Below the pieces are notes generated by a model, which ran no database searches, was not told the DNA's origin, and saw only the letters and a program-made list of their open reading frames with translations. From an uncultured delta proteobacterium (GTDB lineage: Bacteria > Desulfobacterota > Desulfomonilia > UBA1062): 64,000 bases of DNA. The DNA is taken from assembly GCA_963752595.1 (NCBI GenBank), contig CAVVYZ010000002.1, positions 224,001 to 288,000 on the forward strand, written 5' to 3'. Below, piece after piece: positions 12,363 to 47,369 of the stretch (positions within the stretch are counted from its first letter, which is position 1; each line of letters begins with the position of its first letter). A program made the position numbers and the translations under genes.

Positions 12363-13757
12363 ATGCAAGGAAGAAGATTCATGGCAGCTCTCCTGCTCAC
12401 AGGTGCCTTTTTCATGAGCAGCCCGGCTGAAGCTGACAGGATTCAGCCGAAGGAAGCGCGCGAGATTGCCGGAGAGGCATATATTGCCCTGTATCCGCTG
12501 GTCATGAATTACCGGATCATGTACCTTCAGGCAATCGATGGGAAGTCGGGTTCTTATACCGGCGGCTTCGGCACGTGGATCCATCGGGGCCTCGCTTCGC
12601 CCGGGGGCAAAGAAATCCCGATGCCGAATGTCGATACGCATTGTTCCTCTGCCTGGGTGGACTTAAGGGCCGAGCCGTGGGTGCTGACCATGCCCGCCAT
12701 AGACGAAGGACGCTACTGCACCAGCCAGTGGGAAGACCTGTGGGGGTATGTGCTCGACAACCCCGGAACGATCAAAGACGGAAACAAAGGCGGCACCTAC
12801 CTGCTCGTGCCGCCCGGCTGGAAGGGCGAGCTTCCCGAAGGCGTGAAGCGGGCGATCAGGGGAGAATCGGTATTCCTTGGTACCCTCACGAGGACCGAGC
12901 TCTTCAGTCAGCCTGACCTGCCCGAAGTACAGAAGATCCAGCTGGGCTATATCCTCAAGCCGCTCAGCGCATTCCTCCAAACGCCCAAGCCCGCGCCTGC
13001 TCCGGCCATTCAATGGCCTGCCTGGAACGATGGGTGCGTCACTACCCTTTCATTCTTCTCGTATGCAAATTTCCTGCTTCAGTTTACCCTTCCGAATCCC
13101 CAGGACAAAGCGCTTTTCGGACGGATGGCAGCAATCGGCATAGCCCCGGGGAAGCCGTGGAAACCCGAGGACATGAACCCGGCTGTCCGCAAGGCGATCC
13201 AGGCAGGTATCGACGACGCCCGCAAGGACCTCATGGAAAAAGCATTTCAGGTGTCCGCCTTCAACAGGCTGTTCGTGGGCAGCAGGCACTTGGACACCAC
13301 CTATATGGACCGGGCCCTGGGCGTATTCCTGCACCCTTTCGGGAATGTTCCGAATCAGGCGACCTATGTCATGGTGTCAAGGGACAGTCAGGGGGAAATC
13401 ATCGATGGGAGCAAGTTCAATTATACCATGACCTTCCGTGCAGGCAGCGCACCGCCCAGCAGGTTTTTCTGGTCGATCACGGTATACGGCATGCCGGACA
13501 AGTCCCTGGTGCCCAACCCCTTCGAACGGTATTCCATCGGCACCCACAGCCTGAAGGTGATCAAGGAACATGACGGCTCGTTCACGTTGTATCTGCAGAA
13601 AGATTCGCCCGGAAAAGACAAGGAGCTCAACTGGCTCCCCACTCTCCAGGGAAGGTTCGTTGCCGTGTTGAGGTCATACGGGCCGGAGCAGAGCGTGATC
13701 AACCATACATGGAAGCTGCCTCCGCTCAAGCGGGCGGAGCATATTGTCCATGAATGA
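12363..13757 (+). CDS. DUF1254/DUF1214 exported protein
   Basis: PNVDT..SSAWVDLRAEPWVL, YLLVPPGWKG, FFWSITVY, NWLP, LRSYGP. Confidence 0.9.
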   Translation: MQGRRFMAALLLTGAFFMSSPAEADRIQPKEAREIAGEAYIALYPLVMNYRIMYLQAIDGKSGSYTGGFGTWIHRGLASPGGKEIPMPNVDTHCSSAWVDLRAEPWVLTMPAIDEGRYCTSQWEDLWGYVLDNPGTIKDGNKGGTYLLVPPGWKGELPEGVKRAIRGESVFLGTLTRTELFSQPDLPEVQKIQLGYILKPLSAFLQTPKPAPAPAIQWPAWNDGCVTTLSFFSYANFLLQFTLPNPQDKALFGRMAAIGIAPGKPWKPEDMNPAVRKAIQAGIDDARKDLMEKAFQVSAFNRLFVGSRHLDTTYMDRALGVFLHPFGNVPNQATYVMVSRDSQGEIIDGSKFNYTMTFRAGSAPPSRFFWSITVYGMPDKSLVPNPFERYSIGTHSLKVIKEHDGSFTLYLQKDSPGKDKELNWLPTLQGRFVAVLRSYGPEQSVINHTWKLPPLKRAEHIVHE

Positions 13758-31232: not shown

Positions 31233-33209
31233 CTAAACCTCGATGGCGTCGCCTTCCATGAGTTCTTCCACGGTAATGGCCTCGGCCATGATATTGCCGA
31301 TGGTCTTCGAGAAAAACGACGGGTCTTCGACTTTGCCGCCTTCGGAGACGACCGCCAGGTCGAAGAGGAGCCGTGCATAGTCCTTCAGGAGGGGGTCCTT
31401 GCTGTTCTTCTCGTAGATGAATTTGATGTTCGCGAGGCAGGGTGGTCCATGTTGATTTCCAGGACCCTCTTTGCGGGCTCTGGCTTCTGGCCGGTGGCCT
31501 TGAGGATCTTTTCCATGTAGGCGCTCATGTCGTACGCATCGCCGGACAGGCAGGCCATGGAATTCTTCAGGTGCGTCGAGGGCTTTACATCCTTGACCTT
31601 GTCCTTCAAGCTCGTCCTTGATGAATTCGAAGAAGTCCTGTACTCGTCTTTCTTCTTGTCGTCGATTTTCTCGATGTTCGAGATCGCCCTTCTCGGCGCT
31701 CTTGAAGATTCTTTTTATCGAATTCGGCGCAAGATCCCGGACAACCCACTCGTCGATGGGGTCGGTCATGAGGAGCACCTCGATATCCTTTTCCTTGAGC
31801 CGTTCCAGGTGCGGGCTGTTCTTCAGGGTCGTGGTGTTTTCTCCCGTGATGTAGTAAATCTCTTCCTGGTCCGGCTTCATGCGGTCCGACATAATCGCTT
31901 GAGGGAAATCAGGTTGCCGTCGGATTTCGTGGTCTGATACCGGAGCAGCTTCGCGATCCTGTCGCGGTTTTCGTAGTCCGTCGGAGATGCCGATTTTGAG
32001 GATGGGGCCGAATTCCTTGTAGAACTGCTCGTATTTTTCCTTTTCCAGACCTTCGAGGAGCTCGAGAATCTTCTTGACGAGGTTCTTCCGGATATTCCTG
32101 ACCAGGGCGTCCTGCTGGAGGATCTCGCGGCTGACGTTGAGGTTCAGGTCCGGGGCGTCGACGACGCCCTTGATGAAGCTCAGATACTGGGGCATCAGTT
32201 CCTTGCAGTCCTCCATGATGAAGACGCGCTTGCTGTAGAGCTGGATCCCGTGCTTTCTGTTCCTGGATGGAGAGGTCGAACGGGAGCTTGGACGGGGATG
32301 TACAGAAGGGCGTTGTATTCCGTCGTGCCTTCGAGCTTCAGGTGGAGGTGCGCGAGCGGCGGGTTCCAGTCGTGGCTGATGTGCTTGTAGAATTCGTTGT
32401 ATTCCTCCTCGGTGACTCCTGATTTGTTCCTGGCCCAGATGGCCTTCATGGAGTTGAGCGTTTCTTCCTGGATGACCTTTCTGGTCGTGTAGCCGATCGG
32501 TTTGCCGTCCTTATCCTTATGAGCTCATCGTCCGGGATGGGCTCCTGTTTTTTCGACATCCATGACGACGGGATAGTCCACGAAGTCGGAGTGTCTCTTT
32601 ACGATCCCTCGGATGGTCCATTCTTCGGTGAAGTCCTGCTCGTCCTTCCCCTGCCTTTTTCAGATGGAGGATGATGGTCGTGCCCCGCGATGCCTTTTCG
32701 GTTTCCTCGATGGTATAGGACCCGTCGCCGGTGGATTCCCACCTGACGGCCTGTCTCCTGCCCGGCGGCTTTGGTGATGAGGGTGACCTTGTCGGCGACG
32801 ATGAAGGAGCTGTAGAACCCGACGCCGAACTGGCCGATGAGCTCCGGCGTCAGAAGCTCTCTTTCTTCTTCGCCCCGTCGATTGCCTCCAGAAAAGCTTC
32901 GGTGCCGCTCTGGGCGATGGTGCCGATGTTCTCCACGACCTCGTCATAGGTCATGCCGATGCCGTTGTCCTCGATCTTGAGGGTCCGCTTCTCTTTGTCC
33001 GGGATGATCTTGATCTTGAATTCCGTGTCGCCGCCCAGGATGTCGGAATCGGTCTGGGACTTGAACCTGATCTTGTCGATGGCGTCCGAGGCATTGGAGA
33101 TGAGCTCCCGCAGGAAGATCTCCGGATGGGAATACAGGGAGTTGATGATGAGGTTGAGAAGTCTCTGTACTTCGGTCTTGAACTGACGGGTTTCCTTCTT
33201 ATGCTCCAT
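31233..33209 (-). CDS. htpG: Hsp90 chaperone HtpG (several frameshifts)
   Basis: [53 protein letters not shown] across frames. Confidence 0.95.
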
Positions 33210-37371: not shown

Positions 37372-38262
37372 ATGATTCAGATAGATGAACGCTGGAATGA
37401 TCTGAGCTCGGAGCTCAAAAGGTGCAAGGCTGGAAAGCTCGTCTATGCTGTCGGAGCAAGTGATCGCGGCAAAACGACATTCTGCGGGTATCTTGCGGAT
37501 GCCTTGAGCAAGGGCGGCCTGACCGCATATATTGACTGCGATCCCGGGCAATCTTTCATCGGCCCGCCGACAACGATCGGGCTGCAGGCAGTGGGATCGG
37601 AAGTTCCTGAAGACTGTTTCCCCCTCCTGTATTTTACCGGAGCGCTTTCTCCAGAAGGCCACCTGCTCCAGAATCTGACCGGAATAAAGAAGCTTGCCCA
37701 AAAGGCAGCTACCTTGGGATTTCAATCTATCATCCTCGACTCTTCGGGTTTTATATCGGGGAGCATCGCACAGGAATTTCAATTCCAGGTCATCGATCTC
37801 CTTCAGCCGGGATACCTCGTTGCCTTTCAATACGAGGAAGAGCTGGAAGGCCTTCTCAGGAACTTTGCCGGATATCCCGGGATGAATATAATCAGAATGC
37901 CGGTTTCAGCAGCAGTGCAGGCACGCAGCATGCGGGAACGATATCAATACCGGACAGAAAGGTTCAAGGAATATTTCAAAGGAAGCCGTCTCCATGAGCT
38001 CCTTCTGTCCGAGACAGGACAGCATGGGATGATTCCGGATTATACCCGGCCGGACACTTTTGACAACCTCCTTGTCGGCCTGTGCGATCCGGAGAACCTC
38101 ACCCTGGCAGTCGGCATTGTCAGGGCATATAACGGGGAGGACGCAATACTGACCGTATGCGCACCATTATCGGATATCTCTGCGGTGAGAACGATCCGGT
38201 TCGGCTCCGTGTATCTGAATACCAGGGATTTCAAGACAAGCTCAGCACCCTTTCGGCAATAA
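37372..38262 (+). CDS. Clp1/Grc3-family polynucleotide 5'-hydroxyl kinase
   Basis: P-loop GASDRGKTT, DCDPGQ..IGPP, ILDSSG, R..YR..RF..YF lid-like motif. Confidence 0.82.
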   Translation: MIQIDERWNDLSSELKRCKAGKLVYAVGASDRGKTTFCGYLADALSKGGLTAYIDCDPGQSFIGPPTTIGLQAVGSEVPEDCFPLLYFTGALSPEGHLLQNLTGIKKLAQKAATLGFQSIILDSSGFISGSIAQEFQFQVIDLLQPGYLVAFQYEEELEGLLRNFAGYPGMNIIRMPVSAAVQARSMRERYQYRTERFKEYFKGSRLHELLLSETGQHGMIPDYTRPDTFDNLLVGLCDPENLTLAVGIVRAYNGEDAILTVCAPLSDISAVRTIRFGSVYLNTRDFKTSSAPFRQ

Positions 38263-38913: not shown

Positions 38914-39308
38914 CGCCTTGCATTAAATGTATCAGCTGCAATCTGACCTTACAAATAAAGAATATAGACTACAATAAGGCCTGACAGTAGACCCTTTCCC
39001 TATTCGCTGAAAGCAAAGATATCGTGCCAAGATATGGACTTTCACGTTGTATGCTCCAGAGTATAGATTATATCAGGAGATTATAGGTCTTCAAACTCGT
39101 CGATACCATCATTAGATCGCAGATATTCAGGGTCTGGATAGAGCTTCATATTTTATAGATTGTCTTCCAGCATTGCCGGTTATGATCTTTTTTAATGCTC
39201 TTTGTGCTGAGCTTTGTATCATGACATGAAAAATCCAGGGATTTGTGATTACAACCCCGGTATGATATGAATGTATTCTGAACTGAATGAAATGAAGGAG
39301 CATGGGGG

Positions 39309-41426
39309 ATGGCAGTCCAAACGCACAACCAAATGGCTAATTTCATCTGGAGTATCTGCAATCTCCTCCGCGGCCCGTATAAACGCAACGAATACCGGAA
39401 AGTGATCCTCCCTTTAACCGTTCTCCGGCGCTTCGATTGCATCCTATCTCCCACAAAACAGGCTGTTCTGAACGAATTCAGCCGGCTCAAGGGCAAGTCG
39501 GAGAACATCATTCAGGCCCGCTTGCGCGAGATCACGGGAGTGCCCTTCTACAACCTCTCCCGGCTCACCTTCGAGCGCCTTCTGGACGATCCGAACCAGC
39601 TCGCCCCGAACCTGAACAGCTACATCAACGCCTTCTCGCCCAATGTCCGCCGGATATTCGAGCGGTTCGATTTCGGCGTCCAGATACACAGGATGAATGA
39701 AAAGAACCTCCTGTTCGAGGTCATCAAGAAATTCGCGTCTCCCGATATCGATCTCTCCCCGGTCAGGATCGACAATATGCAGATGGGCTACATCTTTGAA
39801 GAGCTGATCCGGATCGGTGCCGAACAGTCCAACGAGGAGGCCGGAGAGCACTTCACCCCGCGCGAGGTCATCAGGCTCATGGTGAATCTCCTGCTTCAGC
39901 CCCTCCGAAGACATGGCCATGCTGAGCAAAAGCCATGTGGTCGTGAAGATCTACGACCCGGCCTGCGGGACGGGCGGCATGCTTTCCGTCTCCGAAAGCC
40001 ATATCAAAACGCTCAATGCCACCGCACAGCCCCACCTGTTCGGACAGGACTGGAACGACGAGGCATGGGCGGTCTGCCGCTCGGACATGCTGATCAAGGG
40101 CGAGGAAGCGGACAATATCAAGCAGGACTGTTCGTTTGAAAGAGACGGCTTCCAAGACGGAGAGATTCGACTATATGCTCGCCAATCCTCCCTTCGGCGT
40201 GGAATGGAAGCAGCAGGCCAGGGCCATCATCTCACGAGCATGAAAAGCTGGGGTACGACGGCCGTTTCGGAGCCGGGCTCCCGCGCATCAACGACGGGTC
40301 GCTCCTTTTTCTGCAGCACATGATTTCCAAGATGCGGCGCCCCGAAGAAGGCGGCAGCCGCATCGCCATCGTCTTCAACGGCTCGCCGCTCTTTACCGGC
40401 GACGCGGGAAGCGGGGAGTCCAACATCCGCCGCTGGATCATCGAGAACGACTGGCTGGAGGCGATCATCGCTATGCCCGACCAGCTTTTCTACAATACGG
40501 GCATCTCCACCTATATCTGGGTCCTGACCAACCGGAAGGAGAAACGCCGGAAAGGGAAGATCCAACTCATCGATGCCCGCGAGTTATCCGTCAAGATGCG
40601 CAAGAGCCTCGGGAACAAGCGCAACCAGATCGGCGACGGCGAAGAAGGCCGGCCGGACCAGATCGCCGACATCAGCCGGATCTACGGGCATTTCACCCAC
40701 GATGAGACCTACACGTTGACCACAAACGGAACGCACAAGACGGTCATTGTCTCCAAGATCTTCGACAACAGCGATTTCGGCTACCATAAAATCACGGTGG
40801 AAAGGCCCCTGCGCCTGAACTTCCAGGCAAGCGCCGGGCGGATCGCCCGCCTGGAGGATGTCAGGGCCTTCCGGAAAATCGCCGAAAGCGACAAGAAGAA
40901 CGAAGCCGTCCGCATCCAGGAGATCGAGGCTGGCAGAGAGCGGCAGGATGCCGTCAGGAAGCTGCTTGCCGACCTGGGTGCAGCAACGGGAGAGAGGCTG
41001 TTCAAGGATCGTCCCGAGTTCCTGAAGGCATTGAAACCCCTTGAACATCAATCGGGCATCCGCCTTTCATCCGCCGAATTGAAGGCGGTCCTGGAAGCAT
41101 TGAGTGAGCGCGATGAAACCGCCGGGATCTGCCGGGACGCCAGGGGGAACCCGGAGGCGGACAGCAGCCTCCGCGACACGGAAAACGTCCCGCTGAAGGA
41201 AAACATCGAGGCATACTTCCAGCGGGAGGTCCTGCCGCACGTGCCGGATGCCTGGATCGATCATGATAAGACCAAGGTCGGCTACGAGATCCCCCTCAAC
41301 CGCCACTTCTACCAATACGAGCCGCCGCGGCCCCTGGAAACGATCGAGGCCGAGATAAAAACGCTGGAAGGTGAGATCCTGGGCATGCTGGCCGAGGTCA
41401 CCGGCAGCGCCGGAGGCAGGTCATGA
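39309..41426 (+). CDS. hsdM: Type I R-M methyltransferase subunit (frameshifts ~39900-40240)
   Basis: ANFIWSI..LLRG, GEHFTPREVI, YDPACGTGGML, MLANPPFG (alternate frame ~40180), FYNTGI, GYEIPLNRHFY. Confidence 0.95.
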
Positions 41427-41459
41427 CAGGATGCTCATCAGGCCCGCCGTACAAAGGGG

Positions 41460-41488
41460 TTGACTTCCTGCCTGAAGATGACGATAAT
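41460..41488 (+). promoter_or_regulatory. Internal sigma70 promoter
   Basis: TTGACT-N17-GATAAT between hsdM and the Abi gene. Confidence 0.75.
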
Positions 41489-41494
41489 ATCTGT

Positions 41495-41553
41495 AGCAAA
41501 CCTGCCGCGCCTCTGCTTTCGGGCATGCGAAATCCGGTGGGTTTTTCTTTTTT
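41495..41553 (+). ncRNA. Structured leader RNA / candidate abiF-type RNA antitoxin or attenuator
   Basis: Outer stem AAACCTGCCG (41498-41507)/CGGTGGGTTT (41535-41544), inner TGCT-TTCG-GGCA hairpin, then a U-rich tract. Confidence 0.6.
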
Positions 41554-41564
41554 CCGGGGCTGTC

Positions 41565-42464
41565 GTGCACTACTCTAAGCCCCCCCTCACCTTCGAGGCC
41601 CAGGCCGAGCTGCTCCTTTCCCGGGGCCTTCAGGCGGATAAAGACGTCCTGATATCCCGCCTGCACAGCGTCAATTATTACCGGCTGAGCGCCTATCTGT
41701 ACCCGTTCAGACAGCCTTCGAATGATGCGTTCAGGGGAAACACGACCCTCGATCTTGTCTGGTGCCATTACACCTTCGACCGCCAGCTGCGGATTCTGGT
41801 CATGGATGCCGTTGAGCGGGTGGAGGTCGCAGTCAGGACCCAGCTTGTATATCATTTTGCACAGGCGCATGGCGCGTTCGGCTATCAGGACCAGAGCTTT
41901 TTCCCAAAGCTGGGCACTGACCGGTACAAGCGCTGGCTCGATGAAATGAAGGACGAGATAGATCGCAGCCGGGAAACGTTCATCAATCACTTCCAGACAA
42001 AATACGGCGACTGCCATGACATGCCTCCCCTCTGGATGCTCTGCGAGGTCATGAGCTTCGGCAGAATGCTGACACTTTTCAACGGCGTTGACGACAGCAT
42101 CCGCCGCCTGATTGCCCGCGAATACGGGACAGAAGACAGAATCCTTCAGTCCTGGCTAGGCGCGCTGAACGTGATCAGAAACATCTGCGCCCATCACGGC
42201 CGCCTCTGGAACCGGGAGCTGGGCTTCAAGCCGTTCATCCCGAAAAGACAGAAATACCCCCAGTGGCATGATCCTTTCGAAGTGCCCAACAACCGGATCT
42301 TTTGCATACTCACCATCCTCAGATATCTCCTTGCGAGAGTGGCCCCCACGAGCCAATGGGATTGCCGGTTTCGAGACCTGCTCGGCCGCTACCCGGAGAT
42401 ACCGCTCAGGGCAATGGGGTTCCCGAATAATTGGGAAACCCATGCGATCTGGAGGAGGGCATGA
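41565..42464 (+). CDS. Abi_2 (AbiD/AbiF) family HEPN ribonuclease
   Basis: KPPLTFEAQ..L.SRGL, VNYYRLSAY, Y.FDRQLR, PLWMLCEVMSFG, HEPN motif RNICAHH. Confidence 0.92.
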   Translation: MHYSKPPLTFEAQAELLLSRGLQADKDVLISRLHSVNYYRLSAYLYPFRQPSNDAFRGNTTLDLVWCHYTFDRQLRILVMDAVERVEVAVRTQLVYHFAQAHGAFGYQDQSFFPKLGTDRYKRWLDEMKDEIDRSRETFINHFQTKYGDCHDMPPLWMLCEVMSFGRMLTLFNGVDDSIRRLIAREYGTEDRILQSWLGALNVIRNICAHHGRLWNRELGFKPFIPKRQKYPQWHDPFEVPNNRIFCILTILRYLLARVAPTSQWDCRFRDLLGRYPEIPLRAMGFPNNWETHAIWRRA

Positions 42465-43779
42465 AAACGTATCGAGCGTATCCGAAATACAAATCTTCCG
42501 GGGTGGAATGGCTCGGCGAGGTGCCGGAGCATTGGGAGGTGAAGAGACATAGATTTGCTTTCACATTTGTTAGTGGAGGCATATCCCTCAACGGAAGAAT
42601 TAGATTATAGGGCGAGGTAACATTCCTTGGGTTTCATCGAAGGACATGAAGACGATTTTATCTTGAAGATACCGAAGATCATATTACCGAAGAAGCAATA
42701 AAGCAGAGTGCAACAGATCTCATTCCCAAGAATAATATATTGGTTGTAATGCGATCCGGAATTTTACGACATTCTATACCTGCTTGTGTAACTAGGCGGG
42801 ATATGACTATTAACCAGGATATCAAAGCTTTTATTCCGGTAGTTCCAATACTCCCATGCTTTCTATGCACGATTTATTGAAGGTAATCAAAGTCAGCTCT
42901 TAACGGAATGGCGAAAAGAAGGAGCAACTGTTGAAAGCCTTGATATGGAACTGATTAATAATTTTGATGTCATCCTCCCATCCTCTCCCGAACAGCAAGC
43001 CATAGCCGCATTCCTCGACTGCGAGACGGGGAGGATTGATGCGCTGGTGGAGAAGAAGGAACGCCTCATCGAACTATTGCGGGAAAAGCGCTCGGCCCTC
43101 ATCTCTCAAGCCGTCACCAAGGGGCTTGATCCATCGGTGAAACTAAAACCTTCCTGGGTGGAATGGCTCGGCGATGTGCCGGAACATTGGGAAGTGAAAA
43201 AAGGGAAATATATAGGTTCCTTACAGAAGCACCCCAAGTGTTACAGAGGAAGAGCAAAATGAAGATGAAGGAACTTTATTTTATATAAAAGTTGAAGACT
43301 TAAATACACTTGAGAACCATGTGTATTTTTCCAAGTCAGCAATTTATTGTATTAAAAATAAAACACCCTTTGTGAATAATGCGTTGATTTTTCCTAAAAG
43401 GGGTGCGGCAATATTTACAAATAAAGTCTCCATCTTAATGAATAGAGCTTTGCTTGACCCTAATATGATGGGCTGGCAAATAAAAAGCTCCCTCGAAATT
43501 AAGTTCTATTACTATGCACTGATTGCCCGCCGCTTAGATGATTTAGCTGATACATCAACAGTTCCTCAAATAAATAATAAACACATATATCCTGAAAATT
43601 TCCCTCTCCCCCCTCTCCCAGAGCAACAAGCCATCGCCGCTTTCCTCGACCGCGAAACAGCCAAGATCGACACCCTCATCGCCAAGGTGGAAACAGCCAT
43701 TGCAAAGTTGAAGGAGTACCGCATCGCCCTCATCAGCGCGGCGGTCACGGGTAAGATCGACATCCGGGAGGCCGCATGA
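42461..43779 (+). CDS. hsdS: Type I R-M specificity subunit (frameshifted)
   Basis: [21 protein letters not shown] repeated as [13 protein letters not shown]; [10 protein letters not shown] twice; [12 protein letters not shown]; two AT-rich TRDs. Confidence 0.93.
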
Positions 43780-46700
43780 AGGCAACCACGGAAAAGGCTT
43801 TTGAAGCCTATATCGAGGAAACCCTGAACAGAAATGGTTGGGAGGAGTGCTCCAACCTGCTCTGGGACAAGAAGCGGGCGCTTTTCCCGGACGTGGTAGT
43901 CCGGTTTATCAAGGATACCCAGGTCGGCCTCTGGACGCAGATGGACAAGCTCCATGGGAGCGAGCTGGGGCAGAAGCTCATCGAGGCCCTGGTCAAGGAA
44001 CGCGCCGCCAAGGGGACCGTCCATATCCTCCGCCACGGCTTCAAGTTCTACGGCAAGACCTTCCGCATGGGGTTATTTCAAGCCTGCCCACGGTCTCAAT
44101 CAGGAAACGCTTGCGCTGTTCCGGAAAAACCTCCTGACCGTCACCCGCCAGGTCCCCTGCCATCCGGCGGACAGCAGCACCATGGACATCGTCCTTGCCA
44201 TGAACGGCCTGCCCGTCGCGACCATGGAGATCAAGAACCCTGTGACCGGGCAGAGCTGGCAGGACGCCGTCCGCCAGTATAAAATACGACCGTGATCCGC
44301 GGGCTCCCCTGTTTCAGTTCCGAACCGGGGCGATCGTCCATTTTGCCGTGGATCCCAACGAAGTGCACATGGCGACCCGCCTGAATGGGGAAAGGACCTT
44401 CTTCCTGCCCTTCAACCGCGGCAGCCATCCCGGCGAGATCCAGTGCGGCAAAGGCAACCCGCAGCACCCGTCCGGGCATCGCACCGGCTATTTCTGGGAA
44501 GAAGTCCTCGGCGAGGAAAGCTTCATCGACATCATCGGGCAGCTTTGTCTTCCTTGAAACCATCGAAGAGACCGTGGACGACGGCAGGGGCGGCCGGATG
44601 AAGGCTGTCAGGGAAACCATGATCTTCCCCCGCTACCACCAGCTCGATGCCGTCCGCAAGCTTGTCGGCACTGCCCGAGGGGAAGGGGGCGGGTATAATT
44701 ATCTCATCCAGCATTCCGCAGGGAGTGGGAAGACGAACAGCATCTCCTGGCTCTCGCACCGCCTTTCCAGCCTCCATACCGAGGCGGACGAGAAGGTGTT
44801 CGACTGCGTCATCGTCATCACGGACCGGCGCGTGCTGGACCGGCAGCTTCAGGACGCCATCTATCAGATCGAGCATGCCCAGGGCGTGGTGAAGGCAATC
44901 GACGAGGATTCCACCCAGCTTGCCGAGGCCCTGGTGGACGGGACCAAGATCGTGATCACCACCCTGCAGAAATTTCCCTTCATCCTCCGCGGCCTGCTCC
45001 GCATTGCCGGGGCCGAGGACCCGGACAATCCCGACGCCGCTTCCGTCGAACGAGGCCAAGGAGTGGGAAGAGAAGATCGCTTCGCGCAGGTATGCCGTGA
45101 TCGTCGACGAGGCCCATTCCAGCCAGACCGGGGAAACCGCGCGGGAGCTTAAGACGAATCCTGGGCGCAGGCACGGAAAACAACGGCGAGGAAGGGGAGT
45201 TCGACTGGGAAGACGGGCTGAACCAGCGTCATGGAATCACGCGGGCAGGCAGAAAAACCTGAGCTTCTTCGCCTTTACCGCGACACCCAAGGGAAAGACC
45301 ATGGAGCTGTTCGGCCGGGCCGGCGCCAGTCCGGCAAGCCGGAGGCCTTCCATACCTATTCCATGAGGCAGGCGATCCAGGAGGGGTTCATCCTCGATGT
45401 GCTGCAGCGCTACACCACCTACAAGACCTATTACAATCTCCTGAAGGAAACCGAGGAAGACCCGTCCATGCCCAAGAAGAAGGCGATCAAGAAGCTGACG
45501 AAGTTCCTGTATCTGCATCCCTACAGCATCGAACAGAAGACGGAGATCATCGTCGAGCATTTCCGGCAGCATGTGAGGAACAAGCTCCGGGGGCGGGCCA
45601 AGGCCATGGTCGTGACCGGCTCGCGCCTGCATGCCGTTCGCTACATGCTCGCCTTCCAGAAGTATATCGCCGAGCACGGGTATATCGGATATCCGGCCCC
45701 TCGTCGCCTTCAGCGGTACGGTGAAAGACCCTGAAACCGGGATCGAATACACCGAGCCGGGAATGAACATCGACGTGGTTACGGGAAAGAACATCTCGGA
45801 AGGCCGGCTTCCGGATAAATTCGACACCTCGGACTACCAGGTGCTGCTGGTGGCCAACAAATATCAGACCGGTTTCGATCAGCCCCTTTTGTGCGCCATG
45901 TACGTGGACAAGCGCCTGGACGGCGTCCAGGCAGTGCAGACCCTTTCGCGGCTGAACCGGACGTATGCGCGGGAAAGAACCTCCTTTCGTTCTGGACTTT
46001 GTCAACGATGCGGAGGGCATTTTCAAGGCATTCAAGCCGTACTATGACGCGACCACCCTGCAGGAGGCCTCCGACCCCAACCACCTGGAAGTCCTGAAAC
46101 ACGAACTGTCGGCCATGCAAGTGTATCATTGGTCGGAAGTGGAGGCCTTCGCCCGGATCTTCTATGTGCCCGAGTACATGCAGAACCCGTCGGATCATGC
46201 CAGGATGCACAAACATATCCAGCCTGCCATGGACCGGTACAAGGCCCTCGATGAGGAAAAAAAGGGCGTCTTCCATGATAAGCTGACGGCGTATGTCCGC
46301 TTCTACGCCTTTGTCAGCCAGATCATCCCGTATTCCGATGCAGAGCTGGAGATGCTGTACAGCTTCGGGCGCTTCCTGCTTCCCAATCTTGGAGACGACG
46401 ATACGGGGATTGCTTCGCATCCTGAAAGACAGGTCATGCTGGAATATTACCGGATCGAGCAGGTCATGTCCGGGGCCATTGTCATGGAAAAAGGCGCGCC
46501 CTACGGGGTAAAAAGCCCGACTGCGGTCGGCACCGGCAAGGCAAAGGATGAAGACAAACCGCTCTCCGAGATCATCAAGACACTGAATGACCGTTTCGGG
46601 ACCGACTTCACAGAGGAAGACCGCCTGTTCTTCGAACAGATCAAGGAAAAGGCCAGCAAAGACGAGCGGGTGATTCAAACCGCCAGAGCAAACACCCTCG

Positions 46701-46876
46701 ACAAATTCGAGCTCGGCATCCGAAAGATCATCGAGTCCCTGATGATGCAGAGAATGGCGGAAAACGACGAGATCGTCACCCGCTACATGGATGACGCGGA
46801 TTTCCAGAAAACCGTTTTCCCCTTGCTGGCGAAAGAAATATACCAGGGTGTGTTATCGGCAGCAGGTGACCTATGA
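43776..46876 (+). CDS. hsdR: Type I R-M restriction subunit (frameshifted)
   Basis: NGLPVATMEIKN, FPRYHQL, QHSAGSGKT, DEAHSSQ, FTATPK, KYQTGFDQP, VQTLSRLNR. Confidence 0.95.
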
Positions 46877-47369
46877 CGCGACATCCTTTACCGGTATAGG
46901 CCATCCTTTTTTTGAGTTAATGAAAACCTAGCTGAGTTTTCGTCCTGTATAATTCCACTTTTTATTAAAACGTATGTGAGGGTTCTTCTCAAAGAAAGTG
47001 AACATCTCTCTTGCGGTCATCAAAGATCGCGCTGTTTTAAAGGTAGTAAACGGAGATCTTTACTCACTGATCAGAGAGACAGACCATAAATATCTATAAG
47101 ATCACCGTACTCCCGAAAGACTTCCTAAAGTTGAGCAATCTGCAAGATAGTATCGTAGCTATATAAACTGTACTGTTAGATCAGATCTCAACTTATTATA
47201 CACATTACGGCATGGAATGTTATTTCCGCATGGTTTATCCGGCCTCGTCCCGGCGCAGCTCCTGTAATTCTTTTTATCTTGAATAAAATCAGAAATGATC
47301 CGCTGCTGATCAATGACGGCGGGATAACGCTCCGGCCTTTCCCTTTGAAGGTCCGGGCCTCCCGCCGCT

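Follow-up and report, generated by a model that had tools for sequence, protein, structure and literature searches.

An open frame across the predicted antitoxin RNA of AbiF cassettes in restriction-modification operons

Results

Organization of the locus

The window, a stretch of 64 kb from an uncultured delta proteobacterium, holds a type I restriction-modification (R-M) operon in which a gene for an AbiF protein lies between hsdM and hsdS (Table 1). As a defence gene abiF is widespread, and Cas13 has been proposed to descend from AbiF. The original prediction, made from the letters of the window alone, had recognized an intact Abi_2 gene with an RNICAHH motif and a stop codon placed on the hsdS start, and this description was correct: the product matches PF07751 (Abi_2) with 191 bits against a cut-off of 25.6, RNICAHH is encoded at 42177-42197, and the abiF stop and the hsdS ATG overlap in the sequence ATGA. 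The protein also matches the PADLOC AbiD model (E 9e-73) and the solved PbAbiF (PDB 8VZ6; E 4e-53). Residues R205, N206, C208, A209 and H210 are invariant in all 15 aligned proteins, including AbiF of C. difficile, and the R-x4-H residues expected of a HEPN RNase are present, with R205 and H210 aligning to R202 and H207 of the C. difficile protein and to the PbAbiF motif. A longer reading of 334 residues from a TTG at 41460 was rejected, as it begins in the -35 box and homologues start at the GTG position. A wider search identified 3016 relatives among 4158 candidates.

Table 1. Features of the AbiF locus, in positions of the window
Feature	Position	Strand	Description and basis
Accessory island	38914..47369		Holds the whole operon; flank comparison with same-genus genomes
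hsdM	39309..41426	+	Type I methyltransferase; +1 insertions near 39900, 40156 and 40232; stop overlaps bridge ATG (ATGA)
Bridge frame	41423..41578	+	51 codons, from ATG on the hsdM stop to TAA 11 nt after the start of abiF; Pfam search negative
Predicted cassette promoter	41460..41488	+	Sigma-70-type, TTGACT-17-GATAAT; scan, position common to homologues
abiF-type structured RNA with U-tract	41494..41552	+	Predicted antitoxin and predicted intrinsic terminator; fold, covariation, model
abiF	41565..42464	+	299 aa, GTG start (ATG in homologues), TGA stop; Abi_2/AbiD-F HEPN RNase
HEPN motif R205-N-I-C-A-H210	42177..42194	+	Alignment of 15 proteins
hsdS	42461..43779	+	Begins on the abiF stop (ATGA); disrupted by insertions in the assembly; AT-rich recognition domains
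hsdR	43776..46876	+	Start overlaps hsdS stop; ten insertions in the assembly

When compared to their orthologues in genome G494, hsdM, hsdS and hsdR are frameshifted by 3, 4 and 10 insertions and carry no nonsense codon. Genome-wide, frameshifts affect 16 of 141 orthologues (0.13 per kb), and the local density in the three genes is approximately 20 times the genome mean; realignment of 14 frameshifted orthologues gave 16 insertions versus 7 deletions. Since all 17 events are insertions, nonsense codons are absent and the genome-wide bias is in the same direction, we consider assembly errors to be the probable cause, true pseudogenes, for which the high local density speaks, being less likely. 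Two 151-nt pieces from one DNA run are identical to abiF, and the breaks in hsdM, hsdS and hsdR lie outside those pieces. In a second locus with the same gene order, hsdM-abiF-hsdS-hsdR (L028), hsdS is intact and the hsdM and hsdR parts are open.

The island flanks adjoin in the same-genus genome G004, where the whole 8.4 kb are missing, and are close together in G005 and G007. A gene for a Clp1-type P-loop RNA kinase (37372-38262) near the island is likely a host gene, because four genomes of the genus have matching DNA on that flank.

A structured RNA of the abiF family precedes the gene

The predicted TTGACT-N17-GATAAT promoter is present upstream of abiF. The scan that located it is weak by itself, with 5 sites in 6 kb versus 3.3±1.9 in shuffled sequence; what supports the site is that promoter-like boxes are seen, by eye, at the equivalent place before the RNA in homologues. 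The RNA, which had been described as a species of about 55 nt, indeed folds with a 10-bp outer stem, an inner UUCG hairpin and a U-tract (-18.4 kcal/mol). Its folding energy was discarded as evidence, the z-score being only -1.3 and not significant, and the UUCG loop is not a family feature, as it is not conserved across homologous leaders.

In contrast, the covariation is strong. In 36 homologous leaders, the conserved core consists of a 7-bp outer stem, a 1-nt bulge, a 3-bp inner stem and a 3' bulge; 9 of the 10 named pairs show changes in both partners, and pairing is possible in 92% of the cells of the alignment versus 28-45% in slid controls. These values come from a plain MAFFT alignment, with the structure picked from the same sequences, which somewhat favours the result. 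By a structural descriptor, 80 of 105 distinct upstream regions of the first set carry the hairpin, as do 23 of 34 scorable regions of the second and 41 of 80 loci of the viral set (26 kept and 15 near-duplicates; 38 were without it).

A scan with the Rfam abiF model, RF03085, gave 16.5 bits (E 4.1) and thus no match at the gathering cut-off of 37. The model nevertheless aligns end to end with the window RNA, which has the same CCCGCC..GCCUCU...GC..AAAU..GGCGGG layout, indicating that Rfam misses the subgroup of the window. A model built from the leaders (R1) scores the window RNA, a training member, at 57 bits, and finds both motifs of the C. difficile antitoxin RCd22 (phage phiC2, outside training; 23 bits, E 0.003). 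Taken together, the covariation and the R1 match to a tested antitoxin place the window RNA, at the level of sequence comparison, in the abiF RNA family. R1 extends detection of this RNA well under the Rfam cut-off. Orphan copies were sought in genome G000, where only weak generic hairpins were found.

AbiF and its upstream RNA are described as a type III toxin-antitoxin pair in the accessible parts of a preprint (bioRxiv 10.1101/2025.04.15.648962) and of two reviews (PMC13064643, PMC12737573). The RNA-antitoxin module foreseen for the window is therefore already in print as a system, and is supported here by homology to 8VZ6 and to the RCd22 motifs; neutralization of AbiF by this RNA is likely. 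As in PbAbiF-AbiFr and C. difficile AbiF-RCd22, an Abi_2 protein of approximately 300 residues with an R-N-x-C-A-H motif is preceded by its own promoter, an upstream abiF-motif RNA and a terminator before the gene. RCd22, however, has two motifs and a separate terminator, whereas the window RNA is a single motif that itself ends in the U-tract; it also differs from both known RNAs in its longer inner hairpin and in its score below the Rfam cut-off.

The AbiF cassette as mobile cargo

The cassette is rare among kin, occurring in 1 of 60 relatives and in 12 of 400 genomes of the phylum; a search of 140 genomes yielded no new locus. In the orthologous operon of G494 (hsdM 76% identical) hsdM abuts hsdS with no abiF between them, which represents an empty site. 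AbiF copies of 79% identity occur outside R-M loci. L029, the sister of L028 on very short branches, lies outside R-M loci, as does L027. An R-M-type gene (hsdM, hsdS, mod or rhuM) is found upstream in 25 of 71 co-oriented AbiF loci: hsdM in 12, hsdS in 10, a type III mod in 2 and rhuM in 1. Judged from these comparisons, the AbiF module is mobile cargo inserted at the hsdM-hsdS junction. The suggestion that AbiF is embedded in the R-M operon thus stands with respect to its position, which is recurrent, but not with respect to functional wiring, since the empty site and the relatives outside R-M loci point to exchangeable cargo.

PrrC carries a separate sensor or NTPase domain and depends on its R-M host. 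It could be imagined that AbiF is a guard of the same kind that responds to inhibition of the type I enzyme by phage; its recurrent position in R-M operons is in line with this, as is the precedent of PrrC in the EcoprrI type IC operon, an RNase cargo of a type I R-M locus that is activated when EcoPrrI is inhibited (PMC12707154, in the part available). AbiF, however, contains a single Abi_2 domain in Pfam, with no sensor or ATPase/NTPase family found; it is likely held by RNA, and it travels without R-M genes, with close relatives outside R-M loci. The short branches that separate L028, inside an R-M operon, from L029, and the occurrence of a cassette within a ribonucleotide reductase operon, also speak against a guard, which we regard as very improbable. 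The abortive backup originally put forward, if it is taken to sense anti-restriction proteins, finds no support here, while a role as an addiction module is plausible.

An open frame bridges the cassette

The frame that starts on the hsdM stop codon crosses the promoter, the RNA hairpin and the U-tract, and terminates within the beginning of abiF. It had been missed by the original prediction, and starts 75 nt before the hairpin. By itself the window bridge is at chance level (p 0.53 in the shuffle test), and one further sense frame runs open at this place. Four bridge peptides were searched against Pfam, and none of the four gave a match.

Bridges were counted across loci with a rule that requires a start codon between -11 and +25 nt relative to the stop of the upstream gene and a frame open to 8 nt past the hairpin; it was fixed after bridges had been seen by eye in the window and five other loci (the six discovery loci). 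Loci were counted if they carried the leader and a co-oriented gene of at least 100 codons within 400 nt. Near-duplicates were dropped (14 from the first two sets, 15 from the third), the upstream stops of L252 and L262 were set by hand, and Pfam and PADLOC served to name the neighbours, which was done ahead of the scripted test for sets 2 and 3 and afterwards for set 1.

Of the 25 loci behind an R-M gene, 22 are bridged; shuffles of the spacer would give 7.25, and shuffles confined to the 60-nt promoter segment 10.6. With the six discovery loci removed, the held-out loci are bridged in 16 of 19 cases versus 5.5 and 8.5 expected (P 2e-10 and 3e-5). By comparison, bridges occur in 7 of the 46 other co-oriented loci versus 5.8 expected, four of these seven being followed by a tightly coupled gene. 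Where hsdM is the upstream gene, each of the 12 loci is bridged (approximately 3.9 expected by manual summation). Taken by itself, the third set is weak (5/6, P 0.05-0.11). The choice of class is minor: addition of L033 (rhuM fragment, broken abiF), L066 (res) and L266 (type ISP) to the R-M class gives 22 of 28. Bridges are absent in three R-M-class loci (L148, L169 and L257), and the C. difficile phiC2 cassette, located between holin and endolysin, has none (12 codons). Ordinary gaps of G000 are bridged in 51/189, 24/191 and 36/252 cases by size class (13-27%).

In 13 loci a start codon overlaps the upstream stop, and its frame is open in 12 of them; the count is 3/26 for other sense frames and 5/39 for antisense frames. 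In the last set the numbers are 4/4 versus 2/8 other frames. On a quick tree of 84 AbiF proteins from the first two sets, with the third excluded, the bridge label is scattered, needing 16 changes for 17 rows, at least 14 of which are forced. Across bridged loci the frame starts 39-368 nt before the hairpin, and in many of them 40-90 nt before it.

The open frame could also be a by-product of an ordinary cassette in a cargo hotspot, left by the start of an old hsdS or cargo gene and by remnant spacer, with the cassette promoter feeding hsdS and hsdR by leaky read-through. ATGA follows hsdM at the empty site as well, the bridges of L165 and L193 begin with apparent rhuM remnants of older cargo (by eye), and L202, which is not part of an R-M locus, has a bridge ATG and an end resembling that of hsdM; the chance-level value for the window itself fits such an origin, as does the C. 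difficile antitoxin RNA, which leaks into a long transcript without a bridge (10.1101/2025.04.15.648962, accessible part). Among 130 out-of-frame frames in non-R-M cassettes, 61 are open versus 40 expected, and this excess, together with L202, indicates that bridges may be partly inherited. At the highest non-R-M per-locus rate, 0.54, the P values for the excess of bridges weaken to 3e-4 overall and 6e-3 for held-out loci. On the other side, openness extends over the promoter segment, which is not gene-derived (22 bridged loci versus 10.6 expected when it alone is shuffled); the window and L028 keep the same frame though their promoter segments are only 22% alike; and the bridges of L028 and L173 (81 and 152 codons) span two promoter-RNA units. 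We hold a by-product to be rather unlikely.

Outside R-M loci, the abiF register stays open through the promoter and the RNA in 11 of 65 cases versus 19 expected, N-terminal extension of the protein being seemingly avoided.

Proposed role of the bridge

We lean slightly toward a reading in which a ribosome bridge carries the host operon through the antitoxin terminator of the AbiF cassette, as judged from the sequence comparisons above. Transcripts from the cassette promoter lack the start of the bridge and would mostly terminate at the U-tract, and the resulting RNA of 55-60 nt would bind and block AbiF, as for PbAbiF and C. difficile AbiF. For transcripts started at the hsdM promoter, the terminator would come 71 nt after the hsdM stop, far enough for it to be fully functional. 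By re-initiating on the ATG at the hsdM stop, ribosomes would open the hairpin as they translate the gap and would finish next to the abiF start; read-through would be partial, and ribosomes would be relayed to abiF and then to hsdS and hsdR via the ATGA overlaps. If transcription ceased or the island were lost, decay of the RNA would set the RNase free, which, by analogy to type III systems, may lead to abortive infection or addiction. It had been proposed that the attenuator sets hsdS and hsdR apart from hsdM; the comparative data suggest the opposite, in that the bridge frame would reconnect hsdM translation past the terminator.

A wider claim, which we hold tentatively and at slightly less than even chances, is that the 55-nt sequence has a dual use, as a terminating antitoxin when read from the cassette promoter and as a translated, unfolded linker on the host mRNA. 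This arrangement would have been selected in many independent insertions, would make hsdS and hsdR expression pass through toxin translation, and would hard-wire a type III pair to an R-M system without protein contact.

Published E. coli figures, from the part of PMC4824070 available, give an efficiency of approximately 0.9 for a terminator more than 30 nt past a stop codon, a fall to 40% of that efficiency for one inside an extended long frame, and a loss of only about 10% for one located 30 nt into a small second ORF. On these figures the problem posed by the terminator is real, and the size of the cure offered by the bridge is uncertain. The bridge may instead have been selected mainly against Rho polarity, for handing ribosomes on to abiF and hsdS, or for holding the RNA motif in unfolded form to prevent binding or cleavage of the operon mRNA by AbiF, and not against intrinsic termination. 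The weak repression of early terminators in that study would agree with this, as would the processing by AbiF of its own RNA (review PMC12737573, in part) and the position of the bridge ends, which lie between -4 and +17 nt relative to the start of abiF in 15 of 17 bridged loci (first listed frame), no locus being bridged solely in frame with abiF. End position was rejected as proof of a relay, since non-R-M loci are alike (37/61 within the same range) and it thus provides no independent evidence. Selection mainly of this kind seems to us distinctly improbable.

In attenuators of the pyrBI type, which are coupled to translation, a ribosome on a short frame over the terminator favours read-through. 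The bridge would resemble pyrBI, which is named in the part of PMC4824070 available, in that a short frame overlaps a terminator where a ribosome would favour read-through. It differs in that it starts at the stop of the upstream gene, upstream of an internal promoter, and encodes no conserved peptide, and in that the terminator doubles as a predicted antitoxin. When compared to known AbiF pairs, the window cassette differs by its position between hsdM and hsdS and by the bridge that crosses it, which is absent in phiC2.

The locus combines a known AbiF type III pair with a known cargo site; the new part is the statistically supported bridge. A frame over the AbiF antitoxin RNA is apparently undescribed: in the titles and abstract openings covered, we found no AbiF inside hsd operons and no frame across the RNA, the AbiF literature covered gave no account of how a mid-operon cassette with a terminator spares hsdS and hsdR, and in the available text of bioRxiv 10.1101/2025.04.15.648962 the terms 'open reading frame' and 'leader peptide' are absent. 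If true, the bridge predicts which AbiF insertions are tolerated, and cloning of AbiF cassettes without their upstream stop context would alter their control.

Other observations

The cassette in the ribonucleotide reductase operon (L225, 551-3555) is bridged and splits the operon, with the large subunit gene first and a TSCPD gene after it. Two different abiF genes lie in tandem near hsdS in L049 (4685-6921), each with its own RNA, and a second abiF-like gene without a detectable leader is found approximately 4 kb from the first in Prevotella-type prophages (L003, L037, and IMG/VR L271-L281 and L293). Extra abiF-type RNAs occur near the cognate one in L028 (834-890, 938-993), L029 (509-565), L157 (1124-1177), L173 (1067-1124), L081 (7786-7851) and L223 (557-621); they often belong to another sequence class and have their own promoter-like boxes, and such stacked RNAs are likely footprints of cassette replacement or spare antitoxins. 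In the orthologous operon that lacks abiF (L111, 7109-8575), a Schlafen AlbA_2-HATPase gene separates hsdS from hsdR, and in L181 (3-1052) an open frame after abiF shows a weak match to the Cas9 alpha-helical lobe.

Elsewhere in the window, 32850-33209 holds what is presumably the start of an HtpG-like gene, seen as a frame of 119 residues only and probably reflecting a further assembly frameshift. A tRNA-Gly(CCC) is called on the minus strand at 12803-12892, its 90 nt being long for glycine, and four Rfam matches mark group II intron domains on the plus strand at 312-2821.
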